Shown piece after piece: positions 1,512 through 18,503 of a stretch of 34,623 nucleotides of DNA; the first letter of the stretch is position 1, and each line of letters begins with the position of its first letter. Made by a program: the position numbers and the translations under genes. Source of the DNA: Christensenellaceae bacterium (GTDB taxonomy: Bacteria > Bacillota > Clostridia > Christensenellales > Borkfalkiaceae); NCBI GenBank assembly GCA_045653965.1, contig JAZOMM010000065.1, positions 1 to 34,623 on the forward strand, read 5' to 3'. The notes under the pieces were generated by a model. The model saw only the letters and a list, made by a program, of their open reading frames with translations, was not told where the DNA came from and made no database searches.

Positions 1512-1512
1512 A

Positions 1513-2379
1513 ATGTTTGGTTATATTAAAGCCGACCTACCAAATATGTATGTAAAAGATACAGTGCTTTATCAAGCAATGTATTGCTCTTTATGTAAAG
1601 GTATAGGACAAACTTGTGGGCAAAAAGCAAGGTTTGCCCTTAACTATGACCTTACATTTTTGTCGGTTTTAATGCACAATCTTATGGGTGAAGATGTTAA
1701 GGTTGAAAAACAACATTGCGTAGTTCACTTAATAAGAAAAAGACCAATTGCACTAACTGATGACTTGACAAAGAGAATTGCCACCTTAAATGTAATACTT
1801 GCATATCACAAACTTAATGATGACGTTATTGATAGTGGTAAGGGAAGAATTAAAAGGTCGTTTTTCAAAAAGGCATATAAAAAGGCAAAGAGATTAGAGC
1901 CTGAAATGGATAGTGCCGTAAAGAAAATGTACGATGAACTTTTAAGGCTTGAAAAGGCTAAGTGTGATAGCATGGATATGATAGCCGACCCATTTGGCAA
2001 TATGATGCAAGATATTGTTAAAATCATAATGCAGGACAAGTTGACTGAAGAAGTGAGTGAACTTGCTTATTATTTAGGAAAGTGGATTTATTTAATCGAT
2101 GCACTTGATGATTTTGACAAGGATAAAAAGAAAAAAAATTATAACGTGTTTATTTGCTCTTATAAAGATGTAAATACTCAAGATGAACTAATTTGCAAAT
2201 ATAAACAAGACTTAATTTTGGTGTTTTCATCTGTTTTAAGTCGAATAGGCGAGTTAACATCAAAAATCAATTACAAATTTAATCACGATTTAATTGACAA
2301 TGTATTATATAGGGGACTTAGTGCCCAAACTAAAAGGATAATGGAGAAAGAAAAATGCAAAAATACTTCGAAATTTTAG
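1513..2379 (+). CDS. conserved hypothetical protein (resembles DUF5685 family)
   Basis: 288-aa ORF starting 2 nt after the trpS stop. The N-terminal MFGYIK...YCSLCKGIG motif is as I recall for the Firmicute DUF5685 family. Family assignment is from memory, not a search. Confidence 0.6.
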   Translation: MFGYIKADLPNMYVKDTVLYQAMYCSLCKGIGQTCGQKARFALNYDLTFLSVLMHNLMGEDVKVEKQHCVVHLIRKRPIALTDDLTKRIATLNVILAYHKLNDDVIDSGKGRIKRSFFKKAYKKAKRLEPEMDSAVKKMYDELLRLEKAKCDSMDMIADPFGNMMQDIVKIIMQDKLTEEVSELAYYLGKWIYLIDALDDFDKDKKKKNYNVFICSYKDVNTQDELICKYKQDLILVFSSVLSRIGELTSKINYKFNHDLIDNVLYRGLSAQTKRIMEKEKCKNTSKF

Positions 2380-2954
2380 GATTGCCAGTAACGGCGACTG
2401 ATGAAGAAATTGAAAATGCTTATAAAACCTTAAAAGAAAAATATTCTCGTGAACGCTTTTTAGAAGGCGAAAAAGGTAATGAAGCAGCAAAACAACTTAC
2501 AAAAATTGAAACGGCTTATAATGAAATTATGGAAAATAGAAAAGCAAATTCAAGTGATTTAAATAGTTTTGTTACAGTTGAAGAATTGATTAAGGCTGGC
2601 AACATTTCTCTTGCACAATCTAAACTTGATGACATTTCTGATAGAAATGCAGAGTGGCATTATCTTCAATCGGTTATTTTCTACAAAAAGAATTGGCTTA
2701 ACGAAAGTAAAAAACAACTTGAAATTGCTATGAATATTGAGCCACACAATAATAAATATGCCGAGGCTTATACAAGACTTAAAGATAAGATGGAATATAA
2801 TAACAGACAATATAATAATGGTTATTATGGCAATCAAAGTCAGCAACAAACATCTCAACAAATGGGTGGAACAGATAGTAACGGCTGTGTTAATGACTGT
2901 TTAACACTTTGTTGTATGAATATGATGTGCAATATGTGTTTGAATTGTAGATAA
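2355..2954 (+). CDS. J-domain-like protein lacking the HPD motif, with Cys-rich C-terminal tail
   Basis: The N-terminus YFEILGLPVTATDEEIENAYKTLKEKY matches J-domain helices I-II, but HPD is replaced by SRE. The C-terminus NGCVNDCLTLCCMNMMCNMCLNCR has 7 Cys in the last 24 aa. It overlaps the upstream gene by 25 nt. Confidence 0.7.
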   Translation: MQKYFEILGLPVTATDEEIENAYKTLKEKYSRERFLEGEKGNEAAKQLTKIETAYNEIMENRKANSSDLNSFVTVEELIKAGNISLAQSKLDDISDRNAEWHYLQSVIFYKKNWLNESKKQLEIAMNIEPHNNKYAEAYTRLKDKMEYNNRQYNNGYYGNQSQQQTSQQMGGTDSNGCVNDCLTLCCMNMMCNMCLNCR

Positions 2955-3484
2955 TGAAAAGCAAAGTAGTTTCTTTATCGGCAATTTCGGCAAGTTTTAT
3001 TGCCGTTGCTTTAATTATAGGCACTTATTTTGAATTAGCAGACCTATTTATGCTGGTCGTTGCTTCGATTTTCGTTTTATTACCTTTGTATCTTAAATCA
3101 TACAAAGGTAGTTTTCTTGCTTTTTTAGTGGGGGGAATAATCGCAATTTTAATAAGTGGCTTTAATTTTACCCTTATTTATCCGGCATATTTTGGCTTTT
3201 TTGGAATTTATCCAATTATAAAAATGAAAATGCTTGAAAAAAGGATTAGCAAACCAGTAAATATAATAGTGGGCATAGTTTGGTTTTTGGTTGTATCATA
3301 TGTGTGCTACTATTACTACTTGATCGTACTTAATGGGGTTTTTGAAGGGTTACCTTATTGGATAGAAAAATATCTAGTTTACTTTATAGGCTTAATCGCT
3401 ATAGTATTTTTCTTTTTTTATGATAGGTTTGTTATCGTTATGAAATATAATTTAGATAAGTATTTATCTAAAATTGTTAAATAG
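2954..3484 (+). CDS. integral membrane protein, unknown function
   Basis: 176 aa with about 5 hydrophobic helices. The start ATG overlaps the upstream TAA by 1 nt (TAATG), indicating translational coupling. Confidence 0.7.
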   Translation: MKSKVVSLSAISASFIAVALIIGTYFELADLFMLVVASIFVLLPLYLKSYKGSFLAFLVGGIIAILISGFNFTLIYPAYFGFFGIYPIIKMKMLEKRISKPVNIIVGIVWFLVVSYVCYYYYLIVLNGVFEGLPYWIEKYLVYFIGLIAIVFFFFYDRFVIVMKYNLDKYLSKIVK

Positions 3485-3492
3485 GAAAGTTT

Positions 3493-4896
3493 ATGGAGAA
3501 AAATCAAGAATACATCGGCACTGTTTGTGCTATAGGCTCAAATGGTGAAGGCATTATTAAGCAAGATAATGCCATAATATTTGTCCCATATACACTGGTG
3601 GGCGAAAAAGTTAGGTTCAAAGTGCTAAAAGTGGCATCAAAATGCGTTTATGCCAAAGCACTTGAAATCTTAACACCTGCTGAAATTCGTGTTAGGGCAA
3701 AATGTCCGGTATTCACTAAGTGTGGTGGCTGTCAATTACAACATATTAAATATCAAAACCAACTCTCCATAAAAGAACAATCAATAAAAGAAACGTTTAG
3801 AAAGGTGGCTGGCATTGATGTAGAAGTCTCTCAAACAGTTTGTGGAGATAATGAGTTTAGATATCGCAACAAACTTCAACTGCCTGTCAGTTCAACTGAT
3901 AAAGGCACGGTAATTGGGTTTTATGCAGAAAATTCGCATAGAGTTGTGCCTATAACAGATTGCCCTATAAATGCTTTTTGGACAAAAGATATTATTTCAG
4001 CCTTTACGAAATATATAAATGATTATAATATAATAGGTTATAACGAATTTACTAATACGGGCGATTTAAGAGAAATCACTGTTAAAGAAATAAACGGCAA
4101 TCTTATTATAACTGCAGTTATTCTTAATCCAAAAATTAGGGGATTAAATAATCTTGCAGATATTATAAATGAGTTTGTAAAATTGCCATTTTCACTCTAT
4201 ATTAACATAAATAATAAACAAACTAATGTTATTTATGGAGAAGAATTTAACCTTATATATGGTAATGCTGATTATACTAGCGAAATGCTTGGCATTAAGT
4301 ATAAAATCGGCGTTCAAAGTTTTATGCAAGTAAATAATTCGGTTTGCAACAAACTTTATTCTAATGTAAAATCGATTGTAAATGCAAATGAAAACACAGT
4401 TGTAATCGATGCATATAGTGGTGCTGGTTTAATGACTGCAATACTTGCTAAAAATGCAAAAAAAGCAATAGGTGTTGAAATTATTGCAGAGGCTGTTGAT
4501 TGTGCAAATGAACTTGCTAAAATAAATAAACTTGACCATAAAATTACTAACTATTTGGGTAAGTGTGAAGACATTTTACCAAAACTTATTGCCGATGAAA
4601 AGAAAAATAATAGCGATGTTTGCCTTGTTTTAGACCCGCCAAGAAAAGGCTGTGACATTAAGGTGATAAATTCTATTATTAAAAGTAATATTGATAAAAT
4701 CATTTACGTATCTTGTAAGCCTTCAACTTTGGCTAGAGATGTAGGACTTTTAGTTGGCACATTGGGTGCTGTAGATGGCGAAATTAAAAAGATAGAAAAT
4801 CCTAATCCTAGATACGAAATAAAACTTGTAAAACCGTTTGATATGTTTGCTCAAACAAAACACGTTGAAAGTGTCGTTTGTCTCACGAGAAAATGA
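3493..4896 (+). CDS. rlmD: 23S rRNA (uracil-5-)-methyltransferase, RlmD/RumA family
   Basis: 467 aa. It has a TRAM-like N-terminus, an Fe-S Cys cluster (CPVFTKCGGCQLQH), a SAM motif VIDAYSGAGL, LDPPRKG, and a C-terminal catalytic-type SCKP. Confidence 0.85.
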   Translation: MEKNQEYIGTVCAIGSNGEGIIKQDNAIIFVPYTLVGEKVRFKVLKVASKCVYAKALEILTPAEIRVRAKCPVFTKCGGCQLQHIKYQNQLSIKEQSIKETFRKVAGIDVEVSQTVCGDNEFRYRNKLQLPVSSTDKGTVIGFYAENSHRVVPITDCPINAFWTKDIISAFTKYINDYNIIGYNEFTNTGDLREITVKEINGNLIITAVILNPKIRGLNNLADIINEFVKLPFSLYININNKQTNVIYGEEFNLIYGNADYTSEMLGIKYKIGVQSFMQVNNSVCNKLYSNVKSIVNANENTVVIDAYSGAGLMTAILAKNAKKAIGVEIIAEAVDCANELAKINKLDHKITNYLGKCEDILPKLIADEKKNNSDVCLVLDPPRKGCDIKVINSIIKSNIDKIIYVSCKPSTLARDVGLLVGTLGAVDGEIKKIENPNPRYEIKLVKPFDMFAQTKHVESVVCLTRK

Positions 4897-5086
4897 GCCA
4901 AAATCAGCTTAAAATAGGCAAAATCAAGCCGTTTCGAGCGATTTTGAGATAAAAATCCCAAAAAACGGTGTTTAAAAACAAAAAATGTTCCAAAAACGAC
5001 TTGGGACAAAAGCGATTTTCGAGCAAAACTCGAAAGTACATTTTACAGCAGTACGGTATAACATATCGAAAACATAGGAGAAAAGT

Positions 5087-5929
5087 ATGAGCAATATTAT
5101 TCAAGCAATTTACAACATTTATCATTGCCCTGTTTATAAGACAGGAGAACATTACTATGTAAAAAACAGAGCCAACAATATGGGCGATGCATTAGAGCAT
5201 TTTATAAAAGACTCTTTTGCTAACTCTTATGGTCTTGACGAAGCTGATGCTATGAGAGCGCATTCCGAGACATTTGCTTATCTTGGAAATCAGAACAATC
5301 CCCCTGATGCTATATTGCGTGGTGGTGATGCTATCGAAGTCAAGAAAATAGAATCTCCTACTTCGGCATTAGCATTGAACAGCTCTTATCCCAAAGCAAA
5401 AATTTACCGTGACAGCACTATGCTTACTACAGCTTGTAAATCTTGTGATGGTGGCACTTGGGATGAAAAGGATTTAATTTTCGCAGTAGGAGTTGTTAAT
5501 AACGAAGAAATCAAACAGCTTTGCTTTGTGTATGGTGAAGACTATGCAGCCAGCCGTGAAATATATGAGAGGATACGCACGCAAATTAAGAATGGTGTCC
5601 TTGAAATTCCCGACATCGAATTTGCGGAAACCAACGAACTTGGCAGAGTGAATCATGTCGATCCTCTCGGAATTACATATTTGAGATTGCGTGGAATGTG
5701 GCACATTGAAAATCCGTTCCGAGTTTTCAGATATGCATACGAGTTTGATAATACAAAGTCGTTCAATTTTCTTGCTATTATCAATTTTGAAAAATATGAA
5801 TCTTTCCCGAAAGCTGATAGGATTTTAATTGAACACGAAATCGGGATTGATATAAAGTTCAGAGAAATAAGAGACCCCAACAATCCTGCTATGATGAAAA
5901 AAGTAGTAGTAATCACATTTGCGAGGTAA
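5087..5929 (+). CDS. type II restriction endonuclease, NgoPII-like (predicted GGCC)
   Basis: 280-aa ORF with an AGGAG RBS, immediately upstream of a HaeIII/NgoPII-like C5 methyltransferase. Length and blocks such as [21 protein letters not shown] and [20 protein letters not shown] fit my recollection of the R.NgoPII family. Not verified by search. Confidence 0.6.
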
Positions 5930-5936
5930 CAAAGAT

Positions 5937-6914
5937 TTGAAAGTTGTAAGTTTATTTTCCGGGGCAGGTGGCATGGACTTGGGCTTTGAAAAAGCCGGGT
6001 TTAAAATCGTTTTTGCCAATGAGTTCGACAAAACAATATGGGCAACATACGAAAGAAATCATACTGCTCCGCTTGACAGAAGAGATATTCGTCTTATTCC
6101 TTCCGAAGAAATCCCTGAATGCGACGGCATTATCGGTGGACCTCCTTGCCAAAGCTGGAGCGAGGCCGGGGCTTTGCGTGGTATAAATGACGAGCGAGGA
6201 AAGTTGTTTTATGAGTACATTCGCATTTTGAAGGACAAGCAACCGAAGTTTTTTGTTGCAGAAAATGTTTCGGGTATGCTTGCCGATATGCATCGTGAAG
6301 CGGTTCAAAATATAATCCAAAGCTTTGAAAACGCGGGATATAACATATCTGTCACACTTGTAAATGCGGTGGATTATGGCGTTCCGCAGGATAGAAAAAG
6401 AGTTTTTTATGTGGGTATACGCAAAGATTTGAATATGCGATTTACTTTCCCCGAACCTCAAAAAAGAAAGTACACATTATACGATGCCATTTGGGATTTA
6501 AGAGAAACCGCAATCCCTGCATTAAAATCCAACAAAACGAATGGAGAAAATTGTAAATTCCTCAATCATGAATATATGATAGGTGGCTTTTCCACTATCT
6601 ATATGTCACGTAATCGTGTTCGCTCATGGGACGAGCCTTCCTTTACCATTCAAGCGGGAGGTCGTCATGCCCCTATACACCCACAAGCTCCTAAAATGGT
6701 GTTTATAGAAAAGAACAAACGAGAATTTGTAAAAGGTAAAGAGGATTTGTATCGCAGATTGAGTGTTAGAGAATGTGCAAGGATTCAAACATTCCCCGAT
6801 ACCTTTGAATTTGTGTATACAGATGTTGCCGATGCATACAAAATGATTGGCAATGCCGTGCCTGTAAACTTGGCGTTTGCTGTGGCAAATAAAATACAAC
6901 AAATTCTGATATGA
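5937..6914 (+). CDS. DNA (cytosine-5)-methyltransferase, HaeIII/NgoPII-like (predicted GGCC specificity)
   Basis: Canonical m5C motifs are present: FSGAGG (I), GGPPCQSWS (IV), ENV (VI), QDRKR (VIII), GNAVP (X). It is close to M.HaeIII through the variable/TRD region (NHEY.IG..STI.MSRNRVR.W.EP.FT.QA.GR....HPQAP). The track ORF starts at TTG 5919. TTG 5937 has a GAGGT RBS 9 nt upstream and matches the M.HaeIII N-terminus better. Confidence 0.9.
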
Positions 6915-6987
6915 TATGTTTCCAAGAACCAATCCGCAAGTTTAACCAATGATGACTTGTGTCGAAATTTAGGGACAAATGTCACTT

Positions 6988-7058
6988 TTCACCCCCACAA
7001 AATATACCTTTTGGAGTTTCCACCCCCGTTTTGGGCATAAAAATATACCTATTGGAGT
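6988..7058. repeat. two tandem imperfect repeats (CACCCC ... AAAATATACCTnTTGGAGT) in the 3' flank of the R-M pair
   Basis: 6990-7017 reads cacccccacaaaatataccttttggagt. 7021-7057 reads cacccccgttttgggcataaaaatatacctattggagt. The shared blocks are cacccc, aaaatatacct and ttggagt. Confidence 0.5.
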
Positions 7059-7116
7059 CTTGACCCATGTTGAAACTTTAGTTGTTTTAGAAAAGATTTA
7101 ACAAATATATAAAATT

Positions 7117-7150
7117 AGCACTCACTAGTTTTTGCTAGTGAGTGCTTTTC
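7117..7150 (+). terminator. rho-independent terminator downstream of the R-M pair
   Basis: agcactcactag-tttt-tgctagtgagtgct gives a perfect 12-13 bp stem, followed by tttc. Confidence 0.8.
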
Positions 7151-7227
7151 TTTATAAAAAGTTTTTTCTAAATCATAAATAATAATCTTAATTAGTATAT
7201 ATAATGTAAGGCTATTTATATAGCAAA

Positions 7228-7968
7228 ATGATAGTTAAAGTTTTGGTGAATATGTTTGTAATAAAAAGAAAAAATATAATTATAGTTTGCGTGCTTATAA
7301 TAACATTTTTGACATTTATAATGTGTTTTGGTGCAATAAAAATTAATCCTGTTGGTCGAGCATACGCTAACAAAATTAAAATAGTTTTAGATGCTGGTCA
7401 TGGTGGAATTGATGGTGGCGTAAGTGGGGTAAGAACAGGTATAAAAGAAAGTGAACTCAACTTAAAAGTTGTTAAAAAACTTGAAAAAATTCTAGTTGAT
7501 GCAGGTATGGCTGTTGTTTTAACAAGAAATTCTGAAGCAGGTTTATATGGCGTTGCAAATAGCAGTTTAAAGCGCAAAGATATGGAAAAAAGAAGGGATA
7601 TAATTAAAAAGGTTAAGCCAACGCTTGTAATAAGCATTCATATGAATCAATATACTCTCTCAACACGCCGTGGCGCACAAGCCTTTTATAATAAAGATAA
7701 CGAAAATAGTAAATTACTTGCAGAGTGCGTTCAACAAAGTTTTAACGAAATGACAGAGGCTGTTAGACAAAGTTCAGCACTTGAAGGTGATTATTACATA
7801 GTAAAATGCAGTGAATACCCAACAATTATTGCAGAGTGTGGTTTTTTATCAAACCCTGATGATGAAGCACTTTTAATTAGCGACAAATATCAAGAAAGCC
7901 TTGCATATAATATTTTTAAGGGAATTTCATTGTATTTAGCCCAAACAACATTTATATATAATCAATAA
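7228..7968 (+). CDS. cwlD: N-acetylmuramoyl-L-alanine amidase, CwlD-like (Amidase_3)
   Basis: An N-terminal TM helix is followed by LDAGHGGIDGG, a KRKDMEKRRDII block, SIHMN and ECGFLSNPDDE. This layout is collinear with B. subtilis CwlD. Confidence 0.75.
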   Translation: MIVKVLVNMFVIKRKNIIIVCVLIITFLTFIMCFGAIKINPVGRAYANKIKIVLDAGHGGIDGGVSGVRTGIKESELNLKVVKKLEKILVDAGMAVVLTRNSEAGLYGVANSSLKRKDMEKRRDIIKKVKPTLVISIHMNQYTLSTRRGAQAFYNKDNENSKLLAECVQQSFNEMTEAVRQSSALEGDYYIVKCSEYPTIIAECGFLSNPDDEALLISDKYQESLAYNIFKGISLYLAQTTFIYNQ

Positions 7969-7975
7969 TTATTTA

Positions 7976-8033
7976 GCCCGAATGTAAAAATTCGGGCTTT
8001 CCTATTGTATTTTTGAGAAAAGTATTGTATAAT
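7976..8033 (+). repeat. 58-nt terminator+promoter module, copy 1 (left boundary of three-gene cassette)
   Basis: It has the hairpin gcccgaat-gtaaaa-attcgggc plus a T-rich tail, then TTGTAT-17nt-TATAAT. 52/58 nt are identical, ungapped, to 12193-12250. Confidence 0.85.
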
Positions 8034-8076
8034 TAATGTAAAATATTAACAAAAAAAGGCTCGTTAAGGGGTGTTT

Positions 8077-9204
8077 ATGGAACTTATATCTCATAACAAA
8101 TTTGACTTATCAAAGCATTGTGGTCATATTGTGCTTTTATATGTGGACACTATGGAGGGCAAAGTTACAAAAATAAAAGAAGCATTGGAGATGGCTGGCT
8201 TTGTATATTATAGTTATCCAGTTTCAATTATAGGTAAAAATACATCATATGATGCAAGTGAAATTTTTGATAATTGCTCTTGCTTGATAAGTGTTTTTTC
8301 AGAAGAGTTTTTCAAAGAAGAAAATGAGTTTGTTAAAAACCAGTTTTTTTATCATATAGGTTATGTTTGTGGTTTAAATAAAAATTCCGTTTTACCATTT
8401 TGCTTAGAAAAATCGCACAATATTACTTTGGAAAGAACTCCACTGCAAAAATTAGACTTCATAACAACTATTGAAGGCTTGTTTGATGCCTTAAATTCAA
8501 GATTTTCAAGCAAAATTTTAAGATATAATTTTTATAGTAATTATATGGTTAATAAATATGCTACTTCTAGAATTTTTTATAGGTGTTTACATTTAAAGTT
8601 TAAGATTTATAACACAGCCTTTCAAAATGCTAAAATTTATTATGAAGATTTTTTCTCGAGAGCCATTTCGGACAATGCTTTTGACGAAATTTTATCTGAA
8701 AATTTAATATGTGGTTGTAAAATCATTAGTTTTGGTAATGACAGGCACCTAACTCCACAAATGCTTCCTTATAAAGATGAAGTTTATGCTAGAGTTGATG
8801 ATTATCCACAAATAATATCAGGAAAGAAAGCTTATACTTTGCTTTCAAAAGAAAATCAAGAAAAAACAGGTGTTAGGGCAGAATTAACAATGGATATATT
8901 GATGCCTATCCATAAACTTTTAGGCTCTTACTTCAAATGTTTTATTACAAGTAAACAAGAAAAATATCCTGTTTATTTACTTTTGTCGCTGTTTGAAGGT
9001 GACTTTATTGATGAGCAACCAGAGTTTAGGGATAATGTGCTAGAAAGTGTTGAATATTGGAAAAGCATATACCCAAAAGAAACATTTATAGATGAAGAAA
9101 ATAGCCGTTTCTACTTTGGTATAGGTTTAACAAGCAATAATGAAATAGAAGTAGATGAGTCTCTTAAAATAGGCGACTCTTTAGATTATATGTTCCCACA
9201 ATAA
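8077..9204 (+). CDS. degenerate TIR-like protein, full-length paralog of the downstream gene
   Basis: The track ORF starts at GTG 8071. ATG 8077 has an AAGGGG RBS 5 nt upstream. There are three collinear blocks shared with the next protein. In the first, CLISVFS..FFYHIGYVCG aligns with AVVILTK..WVNYEMGYLRG. In the second, ILMPIHKLLGSYFKCFI aligns with NLPVHKIYGTEFKFII. The third is a C-terminal ENSRFYF / ENRIYL block. The position of the TIR catalytic Glu is His (codon 8353-8355). Confidence 0.55.
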   Translation: MELISHNKFDLSKHCGHIVLLYVDTMEGKVTKIKEALEMAGFVYYSYPVSIIGKNTSYDASEIFDNCSCLISVFSEEFFKEENEFVKNQFFYHIGYVCGLNKNSVLPFCLEKSHNITLERTPLQKLDFITTIEGLFDALNSRFSSKILRYNFYSNYMVNKYATSRIFYRCLHLKFKIYNTAFQNAKIYYEDFFSRAISDNAFDEILSENLICGCKIISFGNDRHLTPQMLPYKDEVYARVDDYPQIISGKKAYTLLSKENQEKTGVRAELTMDILMPIHKLLGSYFKCFITSKQEKYPVYLLLSLFEGDFIDEQPEFRDNVLESVEYWKSIYPKETFIDEENSRFYFGIGLTSNNEIEVDESLKIGDSLDYMFPQ

Positions 9205-9222
9205 GAAAAAGGAATAAATAAA

Positions 9223-10368
9223 ATGTTGAATTTACAAGAGAAAATATTGGGTGATTTTGATTTTTATACCCGACTTCCAAATGAAGATGAGAAAAAGTTT
9301 TATGGAATATTTATTTCGCACTCTAATTTTGACCAAAGCGAAAAGGATTTGCTAAATTATGTGCAAAACGAAATGGTTAGTAAGGGGCTTTATGTTTTAT
9401 GCGATAAAGACTTTATTAGAGGTGGAGACGATTATCAAAATAGGATTGAAAACGCCTTAGATTGTTATGCAGCCGTAGTTATTTTAACAAAAAACTCAAT
9501 TAAATCTGATTGGGTTAATTACGAAATGGGTTATCTTAGGGGAAAAGGCAAAACTATTTATGTTTGGGATACGGAAAATTTATTTTTAAAAGAAAACAGA
9601 GAGAAAAATCCTTCGCTAAATCTTCTATATTACACTCATTATAAAAAATATGGAAATATTTATAACAAGATAGATGATATTATAGAAGAAATTTCTAAAC
9701 ACTCTCAGTATTCGCAAATGTTCAGTAACGAATCGGCATTTTTAACTAGAGCAGAATTTAATCAAAGGCTTAATGAAAATGCAGTTTCAGTTATAGCAAC
9801 TTTGTCAAGTTCAATTTTCGATAAACATTACAACTTGTTTAAGGATTGTAAATTTGGGCTATTAACTATGAATTTTGGTATGTTTTATAGTGGGCATGGT
9901 GATGGATGTCAATGCTACAGTAAAAGAAACAGTCCAATAGAAAACAAAACTTGCCCTATTAGTCAAAGTGAGTGTGCTTTGGTGCAAAAGACAGAAGTAA
10001 CCGATGTAAATAAGGAGTGTGTTTTATTAAATAGTTTAGTTTATAGTGGGGTATTAAAAAAGGCTGGAACACTTGATAGGCTTGGAAATGTTATAGAGTG
10101 TGGTGCGATAGAATATAATCTTCCTGTTCATAAAATATATGGCACCGAATTTAAGTTTATAATAGATGTTCCTAACGATGACTATTTTATTAGAATGCTT
10201 AATATATTAAACGAAGCAGGCATGAATGCAACTAAGTCAATTTCAAACATTGAAAATAGAATTTATTTATCTTTGCCTGAAAGAAGAGGTCAAGGACTTT
10301 ATAGATTAGACCATGAATTCTCAAATAATTTTATATGTCCTTATGCAATAAGAAAAAAATTTAGATAG
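9223..10368 (+). CDS. TIR-domain protein with about 260-aa C-terminal domain of unknown function
   Basis: The N-terminus YGIFISHSNFDQ..LYVLCDKDFIRGGDDYQNRIENALDCYAAVVILTKNSIKSDWVNYEMGY follows the bacterial TIR pattern (FISH/S start, G..I...I, hydrophobic strand, S.W...E). The putative catalytic Glu101 is codon 9523-9525. The C-terminal part has a Cys cluster (GCQC...C...C). Confidence 0.75.
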   Translation: MLNLQEKILGDFDFYTRLPNEDEKKFYGIFISHSNFDQSEKDLLNYVQNEMVSKGLYVLCDKDFIRGGDDYQNRIENALDCYAAVVILTKNSIKSDWVNYEMGYLRGKGKTIYVWDTENLFLKENREKNPSLNLLYYTHYKKYGNIYNKIDDIIEEISKHSQYSQMFSNESAFLTRAEFNQRLNENAVSVIATLSSSIFDKHYNLFKDCKFGLLTMNFGMFYSGHGDGCQCYSKRNSPIENKTCPISQSECALVQKTEVTDVNKECVLLNSLVYSGVLKKAGTLDRLGNVIECGAIEYNLPVHKIYGTEFKFIIDVPNDDYFIRMLNILNEAGMNATKSISNIENRIYLSLPERRGQGLYRLDHEFSNNFICPYAIRKKFR

Positions 10369-10378
10369 GAGTCTAACT

Positions 10379-12166
10379 ATGTGGGAAATTTGCCTTAATT
10401 TGTCAATATCTATTGCTTTAATAGTTTTAATGTTGATAGCCGTGCTTAGTTTTACCAAAATTGCTGCTAAGAAAGGTTTTAATTTAAATTATCTATTTAT
10501 AATTGGCTTTTTTATAGTTGGATTTATTCTTTTCTTGCCAATTTTCAATTTTGATAAAAAAGACGATAGTTTATCAATTTTTCAAACTATAGTATTATCT
10601 TGCATGAATGCATTAAAACTTTTTGTTTCTGGCTGTGAATATGGTGATATATCTGGAATTATTAGTTTAGCACCACAAAATATTGCTTTTATTTATCAGG
10701 TTTGGTTTTTATTGCTTTTTATTTTTACTCCTATTTACACTATAGGATTTATACTTTCCTTTTTTAAGAATATTAGGGCAAGAATACAATATTTGGCAAA
10801 TTGGAATAAAGATGTTTATATTTTTTCATCATTAAACGAAAAGTCGTTTAACCTAGCAAAAGATATAAAAGCAAACAATAAAAAAGCATTAGTTGTTTTC
10901 GTGGGGATTAACGGCAAAGAAGAAAAACAAAATCCATATATTTTTGAATTGCAGGCAATAGGCTGTATTTTCTTTTATAAAAACTTATTTTCTATTGGTT
11001 TTTCAAAGCATTCTCAAAAAAGAAACATCACTTTCTTTACTATAGATAATGATGAAAACAAAAACCTAAAAGAAGGCTTGAAAATAATTGATAATTATAA
11101 AGATAGAGAAAATGTTAATCTTTACATTTTTTCAACACAAATTGACAGCGCGTTACTTCTTGCAAGTGCGAATAAAGGTAAAATTAATGTTAGAAGAATA
11201 AACGAAGTTCAGTCTTTAATAAGTAGCCATATTTATGAAAATGGTAATATTTTGTTTAAAAATGCAATTGAAAATAAGGGCGGAGACAAAGAGATTTCGG
11301 CGTTAATAGTTGGGCTTGGTAAATATGGAACAGAAATGCTTAAAACATTATCGTGGTATTGTCAAATGGATGGATATCATGTAACTATTAATGCATTTGA
11401 TAAGGATAAAAAGGCATTAGAGAAGTTAAAAGGTGTTGCACCAGAACTTTTAAGTGAAAAATTTAATGGAGCAAAAATTGATGGGGAGGCACAATATAAA
11501 ATAAATGTATATTCTGGCATTGATGTCAAGGAATATACTTTTAACGATATAATCGAAAAAATTAAAGATGTTTCTTATGTTTTTGTTTGTTTAGGTGAAG
11601 ATAATTTAAATATAGAAACTGCCATAGAATTAAGAAGTTTATTCGAAAGAATTCATGTTCACCCAATTATTCAAACTATAGTTAATAACACGTTGCAGAA
11701 GAAATCGCTACAAAACTTAAAAAATTATAGTGGTCAAGATTACGATATAGATTATATTGGTGATATAGAATCCATTTACTGCCAAAAAGTTATAATCAAT
11801 TCCGAACTTGAACAAAAAGCCTTAAAGCAACATTTAAAATGGGGAAAAGAAGAAGAGTTTTGGAATTATGAATATAATTATCGCTCATCATTAGCCACAA
11901 CAATGCACCTAAAAGCAAGGATTTTGTGCGGAATAAAAGGTGCAAATAAAAAGACTAATCAATTATCTGGCGAAGAAAAAGTTATAATTGAAAAACTTGA
12001 GCATAGAAGATGGAACGCCTATATGCGAAGCGAAGGCTATATTTATAGTGGAAGTTTAGATGAAAAAAGCAGAAATAATTTAGCCAAAACACACCATAAT
12101 TTAGTGCCTTATGATTTGCTAAGCAAGGAAGATAAGAAAAAAGACAGTGATATAGGAACTGTGTAA
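10379..12166 (+). CDS. multi-pass membrane protein with cytoplasmic Rossmann-like (GxGxxG) domains and C-terminal RyR-repeat-like motif
   Basis: The first roughly 135 aa contain about 4-5 TM helices. IVGLGKYG (about nt 11309-11329), followed by ...HVTINAFDKD, fits a dinucleotide-binding beta-alpha-beta fold. The C-terminus LEHRRWNAYMRSEGYIYSG...KTHHNLVPYDLLSKEDKKKD matches the RyR-domain pattern H.RW......GW.YG....K.HP.LVPY..L.E.EK..D. An AGGAG RBS overlaps the upstream stop. Confidence 0.65.
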   Translation: MWEICLNLSISIALIVLMLIAVLSFTKIAAKKGFNLNYLFIIGFFIVGFILFLPIFNFDKKDDSLSIFQTIVLSCMNALKLFVSGCEYGDISGIISLAPQNIAFIYQVWFLLLFIFTPIYTIGFILSFFKNIRARIQYLANWNKDVYIFSSLNEKSFNLAKDIKANNKKALVVFVGINGKEEKQNPYIFELQAIGCIFFYKNLFSIGFSKHSQKRNITFFTIDNDENKNLKEGLKIIDNYKDRENVNLYIFSTQIDSALLLASANKGKINVRRINEVQSLISSHIYENGNILFKNAIENKGGDKEISALIVGLGKYGTEMLKTLSWYCQMDGYHVTINAFDKDKKALEKLKGVAPELLSEKFNGAKIDGEAQYKINVYSGIDVKEYTFNDIIEKIKDVSYVFVCLGEDNLNIETAIELRSLFERIHVHPIIQTIVNNTLQKKSLQNLKNYSGQDYDIDYIGDIESIYCQKVIINSELEQKALKQHLKWGKEEEFWNYEYNYRSSLATTMHLKARILCGIKGANKKTNQLSGEEKVIIEKLEHRRWNAYMRSEGYIYSGSLDEKSRNNLAKTHHNLVPYDLLSKEDKKKDSDIGTV

Positions 12167-12192
12167 AAGAGAGTTTATAAATAAAATGTATT

Positions 12193-12250
12193 GCCCGAAT
12201 GTAAAAATTCGGGCTTTTTTATTGTGTTTTTGCCAAAAATATTGTATAAT
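12193..12250 (+). repeat. 58-nt terminator+promoter module, copy 2 (right boundary of three-gene cassette)
   Basis: The same hairpin gcccgaat-gtaaaa-attcgggc plus TTTTTT is present, then TTGTGT-17nt-TATAAT. 52/58 nt are identical to 7976-8033. Confidence 0.85.
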
Positions 12251-12279
12251 GATTATAAATACAATTTGGAGTTGTGGAA

Positions 12280-12684
12280 GTGTTTAAACTTGGCGAAATT
12301 ATGGATAAAAACAAGGCTAAAAACCTTAATCCAATAGTGCTTGCATTTGTTGGAGATGCAGTATATTCATTGTTCGTTAGGGAAAGATTAACTTTTACAT
12401 CGGACTCGAAAACGGGTGAACTTAACGCTAAGGCAACAGCTGAAGTTAATGCCGTTGCTCAGGCTGAGTTCTTGAAAAATATTATGCCACTTTTAGATGA
12501 AGATGAACTCTCAATTTTTAAGCGTGCAAGAAATGCAAAAAAGCCAACAAAAGCCAAGCACGCATCGGTTGCTGAATACAATATTGCAACAGGTTTTGAG
12601 GCAATACTTGGCTATCTATATTTGATAGGTCAAAACGATAGATTAAATTTTTTATTAAACGAAGGTAAATTAAATGAAGGTTGA
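12280..12684 (+). CDS. mrnC: mini-ribonuclease III
   Basis: LAFVGDAVYSLFVRERL and the GFEAILGYLYL RNase III-like signature are present. The start is ambiguous. The track gives GTG 12274, GTG 12280 has GGAG 8 nt upstream, and ATG 12301 is also possible. Confidence 0.85.
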   Translation: MFKLGEIMDKNKAKNLNPIVLAFVGDAVYSLFVRERLTFTSDSKTGELNAKATAEVNAVAQAEFLKNIMPLLDEDELSIFKRARNAKKPTKAKHASVAEYNIATGFEAILGYLYLIGQNDRLNFLLNEGKLNEG

Positions 12685-13405
12685 AGGTAGAAATTCGGTT
12701 TACGAATTATTAAAAACAGAAAAAGAAATTGATAAAATTTTAGTTCAAAAGGACTTAAAAGATGAGCCAAGTAAAAGGTTAGTTAATGTTATTCGCTCGC
12801 ATAAAGTTAAGGTTCAACTTGTGGATAAATATGTAATTGAAAAGGAAAGCGAAAGCAAGCGCCATCAAGGTTTTATTGCTTATGTTTCAGATTATAAATA
12901 TTTTGACATAGATGATATCATTGACAGTTGTACAGAAGAAAATGCATTAGTTGTTATTTTAAACGAAATTCATGACCCACACAATTTGGGTAGTATTATA
13001 AGGGTGTTAGAGTGTGCAGGTGCGCAAGGCTTAATTATTGGCAAGGATAGAAGTGCTTCTGTTAGCGACACGGTTATGCGTATATCAGCCGGTGCTCTTA
13101 ATCACCTAAAAGTTGCAAAAGTTACAAATATAAATAGTGCAATAGACACACTCAAAGATTATGGTTTTTGGGTATATGGTGCAGAACTTGGTGGTGAAAG
13201 CATTTATAAAGCAAACCTTACAGGTAAAATTTGCCTAGTTATCGGTGGTGAAGATAGTGGGGTTAAAAGATTAACAAAAGAAAAGTGCGATGGTATTGTT
13301 TCAATTCCAATGTATGGAAAAGTTAATTCTTTGAACGCATCAGTTGCTTGTGGCATTTCAGTTTATGAAGTGATTAGACAAAGATTGGAAAAGGGAAATG
13401 AATAA
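12674..13405 (+). CDS. rlmB: 23S rRNA (guanosine-2'-O)-methyltransferase RlmB (SpoU/TrmH family)
   Basis: SpoU motifs are present (HDPHNLGSIIR, LVIGGEDSGV, IPMYGKVNSLNASVA). The position after mrnC matches the B. subtilis mrnC-rlmB-(yacP)-sigH arrangement. Confidence 0.85.
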   Translation: MKVEGRNSVYELLKTEKEIDKILVQKDLKDEPSKRLVNVIRSHKVKVQLVDKYVIEKESESKRHQGFIAYVSDYKYFDIDDIIDSCTEENALVVILNEIHDPHNLGSIIRVLECAGAQGLIIGKDRSASVSDTVMRISAGALNHLKVAKVTNINSAIDTLKDYGFWVYGAELGGESIYKANLTGKICLVIGGEDSGVKRLTKEKCDGIVSIPMYGKVNSLNASVACGISVYEVIRQRLEKGNE

Positions 13406-14006
13406 AATAGAAGTAAAACAATTAAGTGACGAAGAATTAGTTGTTCTTGCTGAGGCTAAAGATGAAAAAGCAATTGATGAACTTTTTAATAGATATAAAT
13501 ATATTGCTTCAGCCGTTGCTCACTCATACTTTCTAAATGGTGGCGATTCTGAAGATTTATTGCAAGAAGGTTTATTTGCAGTGTTTAAGGCAATAACATC
13601 TTTTAATGCGAAATTAAGTTTTAAGACTTATGTTTACACTTGTGTTAAAAATAGAATATTTAATGTTATAAAAAGTTCAAATAGATACAAAAATCAGCCA
13701 CTTAACAATTATATATCTTTGTCGGGTACCTTTGACAATGAAGGCGACACTGATAAGACTGAAATAATAGTTGATAAACATTTTGGGCCAGAAGAAATTT
13801 ACATAAACGCAGAAGCCGAAAACGAACTTAAAGATATAATTAACAGCGTTTTAAGTAAGTTTGAGCATGAGATTTTAGTTTACTATTTAAAAGGCTATTC
13901 ATATAGAGAAATTAGCGAAAAGATAGGGAAAAAAGAAAAGTCAATTGATAACGCAATTCAGCGAATAAGAAAGAAGATAATTTTGGCATTAAACAGTAAA
14001 GGATAG
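13398..14006 (+). CDS. sigH: RNA polymerase sigma factor SigH
   Basis: It has sigma-70 region 2 (DLLQEGLFAVFKAI) and a region 4 HTH (YSYREISEKIGKKEKSIDNAIQRIRKKI) that closely resemble B. subtilis SigH. Synteny agrees. Confidence 0.8.
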   Translation: MNKIEVKQLSDEELVVLAEAKDEKAIDELFNRYKYIASAVAHSYFLNGGDSEDLLQEGLFAVFKAITSFNAKLSFKTYVYTCVKNRIFNVIKSSNRYKNQPLNNYISLSGTFDNEGDTDKTEIIVDKHFGPEEIYINAEAENELKDIINSVLSKFEHEILVYYLKGYSYREISEKIGKKEKSIDNAIQRIRKKIILALNSKG

Positions 14007-14014
14007 GGTAAATT

Positions 14015-15592
14015 ATGGGATATTTAGCACTATATAGAAAGTATAGACCAAATACTTTTGAAGGCTTAATAGGTCAAGAACATGTTGTTAAAACGCTTGT
14101 AAATCAAATTACAAGTGGCAGGCTTGGTCACGCATATTTATTCACAGGCACTCGTGGTACGGGTAAAACTTCTGCTGCTAAAATTTTTGCTAAGGCAATA
14201 AATTGTTTAGATAATAAAAATGGTTCACCTTGTGGCAAGTGTGAAAGTTGTTTGGCTATTTCGGACCCATCAAATATTGACATAATTGAAATTGACGCAG
14301 CATCAAATAATGGTGTAAATGAAATTAGGGAACTAAGAGAAAATGTGCAATTTCCACCTGTTTCATGCAAATATAAAGTATATATCGTAGATGAAGTGCA
14401 TATGCTTACAGGTGCTGCTTTCAATGCACTACTTAAAACACTTGAAGAACCACCAAAACACGCTGTGTTTATTTTAGCAACAACTGAAGTTCATAAAATT
14501 CCTGCAACAATACTATCTCGTTGTATGCGTTTTGACTTTAAGTTGATTTCTGATGAACGAATTGCATCTCTTATTGAAAAAATATATGATGAACAAGGCA
14601 AAAAATATCAAAAAGAAGCAGTGATGGCTATTGCTAAGGCTGGCGAAGGTAGTATTCGTGATGCGCTGTCTATTGCAGATATTGCACTTTCATATAGCGA
14701 AAATACTTTGACTTATGATGATGTAATGAATATTTTAGGTTCATCAAATACACAAATTCTTTACGATTTTATAGAAAGTATAATAAGTGGCAACACGGGT
14801 GCAGTTTTAGAAACTATCAATTTGTTATGTTCACTTGGTAAAAATATAGGCGTTTTAATCAAAGATATTACAACTATAATTAGAGATATAATCGTTGTAA
14901 AAAGTTGTAATAATCCAAACGATATATTATCGCTTCCTTTAGAAAAGTTTCAAACGCTTGAAAATCTTTCTAAAAAGACAACCGAACAAAGATTGCTTAG
15001 GATATTAGAAGTCTTTGCTGAAAGCGAAAACTCTCTTAGATACACAAACCATCCAAGAATTGTATTTGAAACGGCATCTGTTAAGGCTGCAAAGCCACAA
15101 TCTGATTATGATATTGATGCACTTCTTGCAAGAATAACAGAGTTAGAAAAAGGTATTAAAAATTGTGTTGATAAAGAAGTCAAACAAGTCGTAATCGAAA
15201 AGCCTACAGTCGTTGAAAGTGTAAAAATACAAAATAAAGAAGAAGTGAAAGAACAAAAACTTAGCATTTCTTCTATAAGCGAAAGCGATTTGAAGGGAAG
15301 ATTGCTTATTAATTTAAGGAAAATTGGCAGTGAAATGCTTTGGAACTTGATGCAAGGCGTTGAGATAAAAGTTACGGGCAATATTTTAACTATGATAACT
15401 TTTAATAGTGGTGACCACGAACTTTTAGATAGAGCAACAACAAGAGACACAATTGAGCAAGCAATGGAAGAATTTTATCCATTTGAACTTCAAGTAGAAC
15501 TTGATGAAAAGGAAAAAGCACTTGATACTCTTGATGAAGAAGCAAAAAGGCTAAAAAATATTTTTGGCGATGATATAGTAATTATTAATTAA
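14015..15592 (+). CDS. dnaX: DNA polymerase III subunit gamma/tau
   Basis: It has Walker [10 protein letters not shown], a Zn module CGKCESC, a DEVHML box and SRC sensor motifs. Confidence 0.95.
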
Positions 15593-15936: not shown

Positions 15937-16530
15937 ATGAAAGTTTATATTGAGCCTATAGGAAGGCTTATAAATGAATTTTCTAAATTGCCAGGTGTAG
16001 GCACAAAAACAGCACAGCGTTTTGCTTATAAGGTTGTTAATATGACCGAGAAAGAAGCAAAAGAATTTGCATATGCAATAATAAATGTAAAACAAAACGT
16101 GCATTATTGCAAAATTTGTGGTAATTTTTCTGAGGGTGATGTTTGCGATATTTGTAAAAATCGCCAAGACAAAACTATTTGCGTTGTTAAAGACCCAAAA
16201 GACGTTGTGGCTATTGAAAAATTAAACGAATTTAGTGGTGTGTATCATGTTTTGCACGGCACAATTTCGCCTATTGATGGAATTGGCCCAAACGATATAA
16301 ATATCAAAGGGTTACTTAATCGTGTTGCTAATGGCAACGTTGAAGAAGTTATAATGGCAACAAACCCAGATGTCGAAGGTGAAGCAACGGCAATGTATAT
16401 TTCTGGATTATTAAAGCCACTTGGAATAAATGTTACAAGGCTTGCGCATGGCATACCGATAGGTACTGACCTTGAATATGCAGATGAAGTAAGTTTGGCA
16501 AGGGCATTTGTTGATAGAAAAACTTTATAG
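15937..16530 (+). CDS. recR: recombination protein RecR
   Basis: It has an HhH (LPGVGTKTAQR), a C4 zinc finger (CKICGNFSEGDVCDIC) and a Toprim domain. Confidence 0.95.
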   Translation: MKVYIEPIGRLINEFSKLPGVGTKTAQRFAYKVVNMTEKEAKEFAYAIINVKQNVHYCKICGNFSEGDVCDICKNRQDKTICVVKDPKDVVAIEKLNEFSGVYHVLHGTISPIDGIGPNDINIKGLLNRVANGNVEEVIMATNPDVEGEATAMYISGLLKPLGINVTRLAHGIPIGTDLEYADEVSLARAFVDRKTL

Positions 16531-16538
16531 GTGTGTTT

Positions 16539-17498
16539 ATGAATATTTCGGTTCTAGGTTGTGGGCGTTGGGGCTCTTTTATCGGCTGGTATTTAGTAAA
16601 TAATGGGCATAATGTTGTTCAATGGGGTAGAAGCGATAGTAAGAGTTTTAATGTGCTTAAGGTCACGGGAAAAAATGAATATGTTGAACTTGATAAACGC
16701 ATAAATTTAACAGATGACTTAAAATACGCTGTTGAAAGTAGCGATGTAATTATCATTTCTATTAGTGCGCAAAATCTTCGTTCTTTTATGAAAAATGTAT
16801 TAGAATACGATATTTCAAACAAAAAGTTTGTTTTATGCATGAAAGGTATCGAAGTTGAAACAGGTAAACGTCTTTCTGAAGTTGTTATCGAAAGTGGAGT
16901 AAGCAGTGATAATGTTGCTGTTTGGGTAGGCCCAGGGCATATCCAAGCATTTACACAAGGCTATCCTAATTGTATGGTAATAGATTCTAACAACAAAGAG
17001 TTAGTTAAGTTTTTGGCTGATAATCTTCGTGGCGATTTGATTCGTTTTTATTATGGCGATGACATTATTGGCAGTGAAATAGGTGCTGCTGCAAAAAATG
17101 TTATGGGCATTGCTGCAGGTATGCTTGATGGTGGTGGTTATACCACTCTTAAAGGTCCACTAATGGCTCGTGGGGCAAGAGAAGTTGCAAGACTTATAAA
17201 AGCAATGGGTGGAAACGAACTTTCTGCTTATGGACTATGCCATTTGGGCGATTATGAGACAACACTCTTTTCGCCATATTCAAATAATAGAAATTTTGGT
17301 GAAAAATACGTTAAAGGCCAAGAGTTTTCTAAACTTGCAGAAGGTGTTAGCACTGCAAAAGCAATGCGAGAACTTGGCATTATGTATAATGTGGATTTGC
17401 CTATCACAAATGCAGTTTATTCTATTCTTTACGAAAATAAAGAGCCGTTAAACGAATTTATTAAGTTGTTTTCTCGTAGCACAAGAAAAGAATTTTAA
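16539..17498 (+). CDS. gpsA: NAD(P)H-dependent glycerol-3-phosphate dehydrogenase
   Basis: It has N-terminal GCGRWGS Rossmann and GAAAKNVMGIAAG motifs. ATG 16539 (AGGTG RBS 5 nt upstream) is preferred over the track GTG 16533. Confidence 0.9.
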   Translation: MNISVLGCGRWGSFIGWYLVNNGHNVVQWGRSDSKSFNVLKVTGKNEYVELDKRINLTDDLKYAVESSDVIIISISAQNLRSFMKNVLEYDISNKKFVLCMKGIEVETGKRLSEVVIESGVSSDNVAVWVGPGHIQAFTQGYPNCMVIDSNNKELVKFLADNLRGDLIRFYYGDDIIGSEIGAAAKNVMGIAAGMLDGGGYTTLKGPLMARGAREVARLIKAMGGNELSAYGLCHLGDYETTLFSPYSNNRNFGEKYVKGQEFSKLAEGVSTAKAMRELGIMYNVDLPITNAVYSILYENKEPLNEFIKLFSRSTRKEF

Positions 17499-17516
17499 CT
17501 ATTAATATAATAATAT

Positions 17517-17547
17517 ATAAAAAAGACGCATTTTTGCGTCTTTTTTC
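17517..17547. terminator. bidirectional rho-independent terminator between convergent gpsA and the WYL regulator gene
   Basis: aaaagacgca-tttt-tgcgtctttt has an A-run on the left and a T-run on the right. Confidence 0.8.
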
Positions 17548-17548
17548 T

Positions 17549-18481: not shown

Positions 18482-18503
18482 AATTTTAATCTCCTTTTTT
18501 AAT

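Follow-up and report, generated by a model that had tools for sequence, protein, structure and literature searches.

A candidate Thoeris-like cassette pairing two TIR-family genes with an RCK–RyR membrane protein in a Christensenellaceae genome

Introduction

Thoeris systems follow a pattern in which a conserved TIR core is combined with swappable effectors, and the available portion of the 29-type survey of Yirmiya et al. (2025, 10.64898/2025.12.03.692087) sets out types I–XI, with membrane-acting effectors in types II, VI, VII, and X. Here, we describe a three-gene cassette, encoded on the forward strand of a 34,623-nt contig of a Christensenellaceae bacterium (JAZOMM010000065.1; this whole stretch is called the window below), in which a pair of TIR-family genes (genes 1 and 2) is followed by a gene for a membrane protein (gene 3) with RCK-like domains and a module resembling a repeat of the ryanodine receptor (RyR). 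As far as the available portion of that survey extends, gene 3 falls outside the described effectors, namely SIR2-SLOG, TM-Macro, SLOG, caspase-like, DUF2270, and DUF6650 proteins, and likewise SLATT, CMP hydrolase-TPR, TIR-SLOG, ion channel, and HIT hydrolase proteins, the type X “ion channel” being compared by description only.

The RyR module links this locus to a second group of described proteins, all of them from phages. The mycobacteriophage protein RyDEP, which has a domain of the PF02026 or R12 type, binds 2′-cyclic adenosine diphosphate ribose (2′cADPR) and 3′cADPR and, as an inverting glycosidase, cleaves both; its catalytic dyad consists of H75 and D117, W78 stacks on the adenine, and H100 contacts the phosphates, while other phage homologs of RyDEP act as nanomolar sponges (Lopez Rivera et al., PMC13232231). 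A second protein, RyR Tad (phage CB1 gp68), binds 3′cADPR (dissociation constant 43 nM), 2′cADPR, and cADPR through H129/W132, H154, and D171, the same pattern as in RyDEP (10.64898/2026.06.04.730250). No host RyR-domain effector is described in either of these 2026 preprints, and none was found in our wider literature searches; Schaffer et al. 2020 (PMC7016017) contains nothing on a part played by RyR domains in bacterial conflicts.

Results and Discussion

A TIR Pair with an Unusual Partner

What might such a cassette do? We think it moderately likely that the three genes make up a Thoeris-like, TIR-based antiphage module that works through the full mechanistic chain set out below. A role in defense of one kind or another is likely, and it is highly likely that gene 3 is functionally coupled to the TIR pair; this link is drawn from comparative evidence (i.e., recurrence in three lineages, in two gene orders, and enrichment of TIR genes around gene 3 homologs).

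As in Thoeris, a TIR with a catalytic Glu is paired with an adjacent putative effector bearing a nucleotide-binding module, and effectors are swapped on a conserved TIR core. The cassette differs from Thoeris in its effector, a chain of about four transmembrane (TM) helices, tandem RCK domains, and an RyR module that is absent from the types described or predicted in the accessible part of the survey, and in its TIR component, an active/inactive paralog pair that has a large C-terminal domain and is often effector-free. Type II Thoeris with two ThsB proteins and type III with multiple TIRs also have more than one TIR-family gene per operon; in the cassette, by contrast, one of the two copies no longer has the catalytic Glu, and a unique C-terminal domain is common to both. 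An initial, sequence-only reading of the window had proposed that the effector matches no described Thoeris type. This view is upheld: PADLOC gave no match for genes 1 and 3, and no RyR, TrkA, or Rossmann term occurs in the part of the survey at hand. Because no described effector with the architecture of gene 3 was found, the cassette would lie outside every described Thoeris type.

Gene 2 is, judging from its sequence, a genuine and active-looking TIR protein for which processing of nicotinamide adenine dinucleotide (NAD+) is predicted. It scores 33.5 bits against Pfam TIR_2 (cutoff 28) and matches the PADLOC ThsB1 models (E 6e-13). Across 55 homologs with identities down to 30%, F30, S32, and H33 of the FISHS motif, S95, W97, and E101 are invariant, as are Cys231, Cys244, Cys251, Cys266, and Cys372 in the C-terminal part. 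The AlphaFold2 (AF2) model (predicted local distance difference test [pLDDT] 90.3; predicted template modeling score [pTM] 0.85) has AbTir with a substrate analogue as its best Foldseek match (7uxu_A, E 1e-4, TMt 0.63), with further matches to plant, SARM1, and SPARTA TIRs. The initial identification of SDWVNYE as a catalytic-Glu block is thereby borne out. The NCBIfam model of type III ThcB4 gave a weak match at the level of the TIR only (E 0.005, vs. a cutoff of 220 bits), and the TIR motifs of gene 2 were not found in the accessible part of Table S1 of Yirmiya et al. The C-terminal domain (~210 aa, residues ~170–381) had no fold match in the PDB or among the BFVD viral structures; the attempt to assign a fold to this domain in genes 1 and 2 by Foldseek against the two collections returned only TIR and deoxyribosyltransferase matches.

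Gene 1 had been read as a full-length paralog of gene 2, and comparison of profiles supports this for both halves of the protein. Pairwise BLAST of the two gave only a weak match of 33 aa, so profile comparison was needed. The gene 1 family profile aligns with the TIR of gene 2 (hhalign 90%, E 1.5e-6), and the C-terminal halves align with each other (94.5%, E 8e-8) around a common P-V-H-K-x-x-G-x-x-F-K motif. A Pfam TIR_2 match had been anticipated for both genes; it was obtained for gene 2, while the gene 1 protein of the window matches neither Pfam nor PADLOC, its TIR assignment coming from the family profile and from one of 10 gene 1 homologs (P0123), which has a precomputed PF13676 match. 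E101 of gene 2 aligns with His93 of gene 1, at a site that varies among H, N, Y, F, V, and Q across the gene 1 family, and the ratio of nonsynonymous to synonymous substitution rates (dN/dS) of gene 1 is 0.04–0.06. Gene 1 is therefore best described, on these alignments, as a full-length, catalytically dead TIR paralog of gene 2 and, lacking the catalytic Glu, not as a second enzyme.

Gene 3 Combines a Membrane Domain, Tandem RCK Domains, and an RyR-Like Module

Gene 3 had been described at first as a multipass membrane protein with a GxGxxG Rossmann domain and an RyR-like C terminus, and this architecture was recovered, with about four helices in the window protein and with TrkA_N and RyR confirmed at the level of the family or of structure. 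Pfam matches to these two domains had been expected of the protein itself; there, both fall below cutoff (for TrkA_N, 17.6 bits vs. 23.8), and it is members of the family that match (TrkA_N in 8 of 41). The family alignment is strongly conserved. The AF2 model (pLDDT 80, pTM 0.71) consists of N-terminal helices, two Rossmann-like domains, and a helical C terminus, and its cytoplasmic part matches TrkA in the PDB by Foldseek (4g65_B, E 1e-6; 4j9u, 4j9v, 6v4k) and also the BK channel hSlo1 (8gh9, E 1e-4) and the CASTOR gating ring (6o7a). These matches of the model indicate a tandem RCK (TrkA-like) module. In 41 diverse family members, G312 is invariant and G314, G317, and D341 are conserved at 90% or above. 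With tandem RCK domains placed right after the membrane domain and a GxGxxG...D motif, gene 3 resembles the RCK-gated channels (TrkA/TrkH, KtrAB, MthK, BK/Slo1, and CASTOR). It differs from them in having no detectable K+ channel or TrkH pore similarity in its membrane domain, in its extra RyR module, and in a genomic context of conflict systems rather than ion homeostasis.

RCK domains of the TrkA/KtrA type bind NAD(H), ATP, and ADP. An alternative is that gene 3, although coupled to the TIR pair, senses depletion of NAD+ or ATP instead of a signal: the pair would act as an NADase, and loss of the dinucleotide from the RCK site would gate the membrane domain, so that membrane collapse is added to metabolic arrest. 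The structural match to TrkA and the conserved GLGKYG...D341 would suit such a sensor, and TIR-STAND-TPR proteins, an Avs-like group whose members are typically NADase effectors, are also found next to gene 3 homologs. Depletion sensing leaves the high conservation of the RyR pocket residues unexplained, and we consider it improbable, ranking it second among the alternatives discussed here.

An acidic patch between helices 3 and 4 of the membrane domain is conserved in the family alignment. To read helix 3, the acidic loop, and helix 4 as a P-loop arrangement, with the patch lining a pore, would be speculation. No K+ channel P-loop, TrkH/KtrB pore, or TVGYG-type filter was recognizable in this domain, and its assignment to a known pore was rejected when profile searches of the PDB and Pfam gave no support.

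The C-terminal module of gene 3 is RyR/R12-like by several lines of comparison. A PDB profile search with gene 3 retrieved RyR1 repeats (E 0.0024), and PF02026 matches 14 of the 41 diverse family members (E ≤ 0.01, best 8.6e-8). When the RyDEP sequence (MN234187.1 gene 78, DyoEdafos gp78) was aligned with gene 3 homologs by MAFFT, its residues H75, W78, H100, and D117 mapped to H542, W545, H572, and D589 of gene 3. Among the same 41 members, W545 and H572 do not vary, and H542 and D589 reach a conservation of 90% or more, which places all four among the best-conserved positions of the whole protein. The initial reading did not count the RyR repeat among established ligand sites, a view overtaken by the two 2026 preprints, in which phage RyR/R12 domains bind or cleave cADPR isomers. 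Gene 3 shares with RyDEP and RyR Tad a PF02026-type module with identical H-x-x-W...H...D residues. The phage proteins, however, are small, soluble, dimeric, and act in counter-defense, whereas gene 3 is a 595-aa host membrane protein beside TIR genes, without the last dimerization helix, and its role would be that of a receptor or effector rather than evasion.

There is also a resemblance to animal ryanodine receptors (Repeat12), in that an R12-type adenine-nucleotide pocket sits on a membrane protein that is genetically coupled to an enzyme family (TIR) making cADPR-type molecules. The homology is limited to the R12-like module, and size and topology are completely different. To our knowledge, direct binding of cADPR to the animal R12 is unproven.

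Could gene 3 instead act as a brake on the TIR pair? As a host membrane-anchored, RyDEP-like glycosidase or sponge, it would clear leaky TIR product and so prevent autoimmunity. The RyDEP dyad H75/D117 is kept as H542/D589, standalone host RyR proteins occur in related loci, and CARF effectors are known to limit themselves by degrading their ligand. A hydrolase or sponge would not, however, require about four TM helices and a tandem RCK ring within 595 aa, and loci that have the TIR pair only contain no signal-activated effector in need of protection. We regard a brake as unlikely, the third in rank among the alternatives.

Recurrence of the TIR Pair and of Gene 3 across Lineages

How firmly are the three genes tied to one another outside the window? 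We sampled ten independent gene 2 lineages through exact-protein look-ups, and a metagenome scan for gene 2 relatives gave 7 loci; homologs fall into 111 clusters for gene 2 and 10 for gene 1. A gene-1-like gene lies directly upstream of gene 2 in all ten lineages (E 1e-42 to 1e-177 with the family hidden Markov model, HMM). Because this holds in every lineage sampled, the two genes are, on the sequence evidence, a conserved and mobile two-gene core; the pair is inserted at unrelated chromosomal sites and its distribution is sporadic.

A gene-3-like protein, detected with the gene 3 family HMM, stands beside the pair in three of the ten lineages, in the orders g1-g2-g3 and g3′-g1-g2, at gene 2 identities of 100%, 48%, and 31%. 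In the lineage at 48% (L100), a 725-aa relative is encoded upstream (3671–5848) with a 4-nt overlap with the gene-1-like gene; it matches the whole profile (E 1.4e-17), its glycine motif is degenerate (GxGxxN), and a long insert separates the His and Asp of its RyR module. In the lineage at 31% (L102, an Anaeroplasmataceae metagenome-assembled genome, MAG), the relative lies downstream (8012–9855) and is split by a frameshift into two overlapping open reading frames (ORFs) in different frames, which would make it either a pseudogene or the result of an assembly error. In both relatives, GxGxx(G/N)...D and E-H-x-R-W are retained, and the last helix of the RyR module is complete. Pfam annotation misses these distant genes, and their detection by the family HMM ruled out a restriction of gene 3 to one clade.

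Two more lineages have other small membrane proteins downstream of the pair, one of 187 aa with one TM helix and one of 169 aa with four. A TIR core with swappable, mostly membrane-bound partners is, by analogy, the pattern of signaling systems such as Thoeris. Chance colocation would hardly explain why the TIR pair and a gene-3-like gene recur together with altered order. In locus L101 (9093–15134), the TIR pair lies near a HipA/HTH toxin–antitoxin, a faint pPIWI_RE_Y match, and two phage-type integrases, in a mobile, defense-island-like setting.

The gene 3 family is far larger than this association. A word index gave more than 610 matches, and homologs form at least 1,757 representative clusters at E ≤ 1e-3 (718 at E ≤ 1e-30), mostly in Clostridia. 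Neighborhoods were drawn from the best 80 of 324 relatives in a genome collection, all but one of these 80 records being titled as Clostridia-type MAGs, and TIR statistics were computed on 76 species-level loci. Among the best 80 of 324, genes 1 and 2 occur only beside the two closest gene 3 relatives (L005 and L006), and the neighbors of the remaining homologs are highly variable. TIR genes account for 6.8% of the genes adjacent to gene 3 homologs, 5.7% of those at distance 2, and ~1.2% at a distance of 5 or more (Fisher odds ratio 5.3, p 5.5e-4 for enrichment next to gene 3 homologs). They come from no fewer than 15 unrelated clusters, with TIR-STAND-TPR and TIR-LRR proteins among them, and all nearby ones are codirectional. 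A TIR lies within two genes of the gene 3 homolog in 16 of the 76 loci. Other recurrent neighbors are a CARF-PD-(D/E)xK nuclease (PADLOC E 4e-27), an IetA/ClpB-like AAA+-M41 protein (E 2e-46), YbjN, TerB-like, and standalone RyR proteins, a milieu that appears, from gene content, to be one of nucleotide signaling and defense. A survey of homolog neighborhoods for co-occurrence of the trio and enrichment near defense genes had been suggested; defense-type genes and TIR enrichment near gene 3 were found, and constant co-occurrence was not.

A second type of recurrent multigene locus surrounds other gene 3 homologs (L017, ~1500–13000; L073, ~7000–14800; also L004, L009, L013, L022, L039, and L070). 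Its order begins with two YbjN genes, the CARF-PD-(D/E)xK nuclease, a gene 3 homolog, and an AAA+ protein of ~1160 aa (ClpB-like plus IetA-like plus peptidase M41), followed by a longer second gene 3 paralog (660–956 aa), a standalone RyR protein of 94 aa, and a TerB-like protein. From its composition, it looks like an undescribed conflict system. The host standalone RyR proteins (L073, 14012–14296, and cluster c3; PF02026 E 5e-38) keep the His-x-x-Trp and the Asp and have Thr at the position of RyDEP His100.

The gene 3 family appears to be cellular rather than phage-borne. Gene 3 has no plasmid match, and in viral data the family was met in one of 2.9 million IMG/VR contigs and in one unverified “Bacteriophage sp.” record; the idea that gene 3 is a phage or plasmid anti-defense gene was rejected on these grounds, local BLAST revealing no phage hallmarks in the viral records. 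The unverified record comes from a fecal virome (L098, MT835673.1) and carries a gene-3-like gene of 36% identity at 16368–18458; another such fecal-virome record (MT837259.1) has a standalone RyR gene at 934–1206 that is 69% identical to the c3 query. The viral origin of both records is doubtful, because local BLAST found no phage hallmark genes in them.

Mechanism and Its Weighing

The mechanism that we favor has five steps. Infection would switch on the TIR pair, with the common C-terminal domains of genes 1 and 2 as the likely infection sensors and gene 1 probably as the regulatory or sensing partner of gene 2 in a hetero-oligomer. Gene 2 would then turn NAD+ into a product derived from ADPR (e.g., a cADPR isomer), which would dock in the His-x-x-Trp...His...Asp pocket of gene 3. 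The RCK ring would relay ligand binding to the membrane domain, and the outcome would be an ion leak or depolarization and abortive infection (Abi); this last step, whether ion flux or membrane disruption, is suggested by the architecture of gene 3. Conservation of the catalytic dyad of RyDEP raises the possibility that gene 3 also hydrolyzes its ligand and thereby limits its own activation. More broadly, gene 3 might represent a large undescribed family of membrane receptors or effectors in which cADPR-type signals made by TIRs would be sensed by an R12-type pocket that gates ion flux, an extension that we hold tentatively, as possible and short of probable.

Several observations count against this reading. 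The window protein scores 16.4 bits against Pfam RyR, where the cutoff is 27.4 (E 0.011). Since the protein ends 6 residues after D589, it is without the canonical last RyR helix, which contributes to the dimer interface of RyDEP and of RyR Tad, and residues 566–595 are poorly modeled (pLDDT <50). RyR/R12 domains bind ATP and ADP too, and the ligand of gene 3 therefore need not be a TIR product. A profile of the N-terminal 145 aa found no relative in the PDB (best E 0.84, irrelevant) or Pfam, and PADLOC is blind to gene 3 as it is to gene 1. Among phage homologs that share these pocket residues, most leave the signal unhydrolyzed (PMC13232231), which tells against the brake as well.

To these are added two observations on genomic distribution. 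The TIR pair stands alone in five of the ten sampled lineages, and it may, for this reason, suffice by itself to deplete NAD+. Of the gene 3 homologs, ~79% lack a TIR within a distance of two genes. The trio, which had been taken for one unit, is thus not an obligate one. These numbers would fit a locus of two independent modules placed side by side, a complete TIR NADase Abi pair and a separate gene 3, concerned with defense or ion homeostasis, at the same insertion site; defense genes also cluster for reasons besides direct interaction. Against independence, the 10-nt gap and the common terminator point to one operon, the association is met in three lineages, down to 31% gene 2 identity and with gene order altered, TIR frequency declines with distance from gene 3 homologs, and the RyR pocket residues match the binding site for TIR products. 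We regard two independent modules as unlikely, while placing this first among the alternatives.

Why would the favored reading, a TIR pair signaling to gene 3, matter? Binding and cleavage of Thoeris signals by RyR/R12 domains were shown in 2026 solely as a phage weapon; the cassette, together with a gene 3 family that numbers 1,757 clusters or more, suggests that the pocket also serves the bacterial side of the conflict, joined to a membrane/RCK module and linked genetically to a wide range of TIRs. If this is true, gene 3 would be a new effector class for TIR immunity and would stand, on the host side, opposite the RyR sponges and glycosidases of phages, whose RyR-domain decoys would be explained as mimics of a host receptor, and the cassette would define a new active/inactive TIR paralog pair with a sensor domain. 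It would also provide a prokaryotic precedent for a cADPR-like messenger coupled to an RyR-domain membrane protein, as long proposed in animals, and a tractable bacterial model of nucleotide gating through an R12 domain, relevant to animal ryanodine receptors and cADPR. Gut and rumen Clostridia, in which the family is abundant, are poorly covered by defense surveys based on E. coli and Bacillus, and the wider family and its second recurrent type of locus merit study of their own.

Operon Signals, Flanking Repeats, and Chromosomal Setting

The reading of the trio as three codirectional genes with short gaps and ribosome-binding sites was verified in full: the coordinates (Table 1), the gaps (exactly 18 nt between genes 1 and 2 and 10 nt between genes 2 and 3), and the purine runs all hold. 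RBS-like AAGGA precedes gene 2 and TAGGAG precedes gene 3. For gene 1, the ATG is the more likely start because an AAGGGG Shine–Dalgarno sequence lies 5 nt upstream of it. A promoter and a terminator of the trio's own had also been claimed. The terminator scan found the latter, a G+C-rich hairpin followed by a T-run 3′ of gene 3; the promoter corresponds to a TTGTAT-17-TATAAT match that scores under the scan threshold, for which reason it is a plausible but weakly supported candidate. All three genes are under purifying selection (dN/dS 0.04–0.12), and the trio is intact in relatives down to 73–81% gene 3 identity.

Table 1. Features of the cassette and its flanks, in window coordinates
Feature	Position	Strand	Details
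Upstream 76-nt repeat copy	7967–8042	+	Amidase terminator hairpin 7975–7998; TTGTAT 8005–8010, 17 nt, TATAAT 8028–8033 (putative trio promoter)
Gene 1	8077–9204	+	375 aa from ATG 8077; alternative GTG 8071
Gene 2	9223–10368	+	381 aa
Gene 2 TIR domain	9301–9702 (residues ~27–160)	+	FISHS, SDWVNYE; catalytic Glu101 at 9523–9525
Gene 3	10379–12166	+	595 aa
Gene 3 membrane domain	10379–10798 (residues 1–140)	+	~4 hydrophobic helices: 2–25, 36–57, 64–83, 100–140 (AF2, hydropathy)
Gene 3 tandem RCK/TrkA-N-like domains	10811–11773 (residues ~145–300, ~304–465)	+	Foldseek PDB
Gene 3 GLGKYG motif	11312–11329 (G312–G317)	+	Second Rossmann domain, with Asp341
Gene 3 RyR/R12-like module	11966–12166 (residues ~530–595)	+	His542-x-x-Trp545 12002–12013; His572 12092; Asp589 12143
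Downstream 76-nt repeat copy	12184–12259	+	Trio terminator hairpin 12193–12214; TATAAT 12245–12250
Restriction–modification pair	5087–5929; 5919–6914		NgoPII-type restriction endonuclease (Pfam E 6e-107); C5 cytosine methylase (E 1e-105)

A repeat-bounded insertion had been proposed as well, and a repeat search found a 76-nt direct repeat, 83% identical between its copies, on both sides of the trio. Each copy consists of a terminator hairpin plus TTGT(A/G)T-17-TATAAT. The upstream hairpin, which ends the amidase gene, is near-identical to the one that ends the trio, and the TATAAT of the downstream copy would serve the mini-RNase III/rlmB/sigH operon as a promoter. This repeat pair also surrounds the trio in L001, L003, L006, and L085. 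Because the hairpin-loop sequence is the same in both copies within a genome and different between genomes (the window, L001, and L006 compared), ongoing homogenization of the copies by gene conversion is suggested. The pair would give a ready substrate for recombinational loss of the 4.2-kb cassette.

The window shares synteny with a Clostridiales MAG (L001/L005, SVIO01000010), and the trio occupies the same site in three related genomes. Genes common to the window and this MAG are, in order, tRNA synthetase, DUF5685, DnaJ-like, tRNA U5-methyltransferase-like, amidase_3, trio, mini-RNase III, rlmB-like, sigH-like, dnaX, ybaB, and recR. Flanks of this kind (i.e., amidase, mini-RNase III, rlmB, sigH, and dnaX) and the fixed site in three related genomes are what would be seen if the trio were a lineage-specific housekeeping locus without a part in defense, such as regulated K+ transport with TIR-like accessories. 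The distribution is nevertheless sporadic, with the pair at unrelated sites in other lineages; the cassette is repeat-bounded, the contexts of the gene 3 family are variable and defense-rich, and the catalytic TIR Glu is conserved. We consider a housekeeping role very improbable.

A restriction–modification (R-M) system lies ~1 kb upstream of the trio, in a block with a G+C content of ~0.40 against ~0.31 around it. It is present in the window only, 5′ of the amidase gene, and appears to be a recent insertion, because it is missing from the otherwise syntenic L001. The setting is thus, as far as gene content tells, one of two defense-type insertions around one amidase gene amid housekeeping genes. 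Of the defense island that had been proposed, the adjacent R-M system stands; a large island does not, the surroundings consisting of housekeeping genes plus this single R-M system. Between the methylase and amidase genes (7000–7146), there are two direct copies of a 31-nt sequence (7000–7030 and 7041–7071), 41 nt apart, and a perfect 13-bp bidirectional terminator hairpin (7117–7146). Farther along the window, on the minus strand (17549–23106), a WYL/HTH/WCX regulator of 332 aa is encoded near a 1042-aa protein without a Pfam match, and both are kept in L001.

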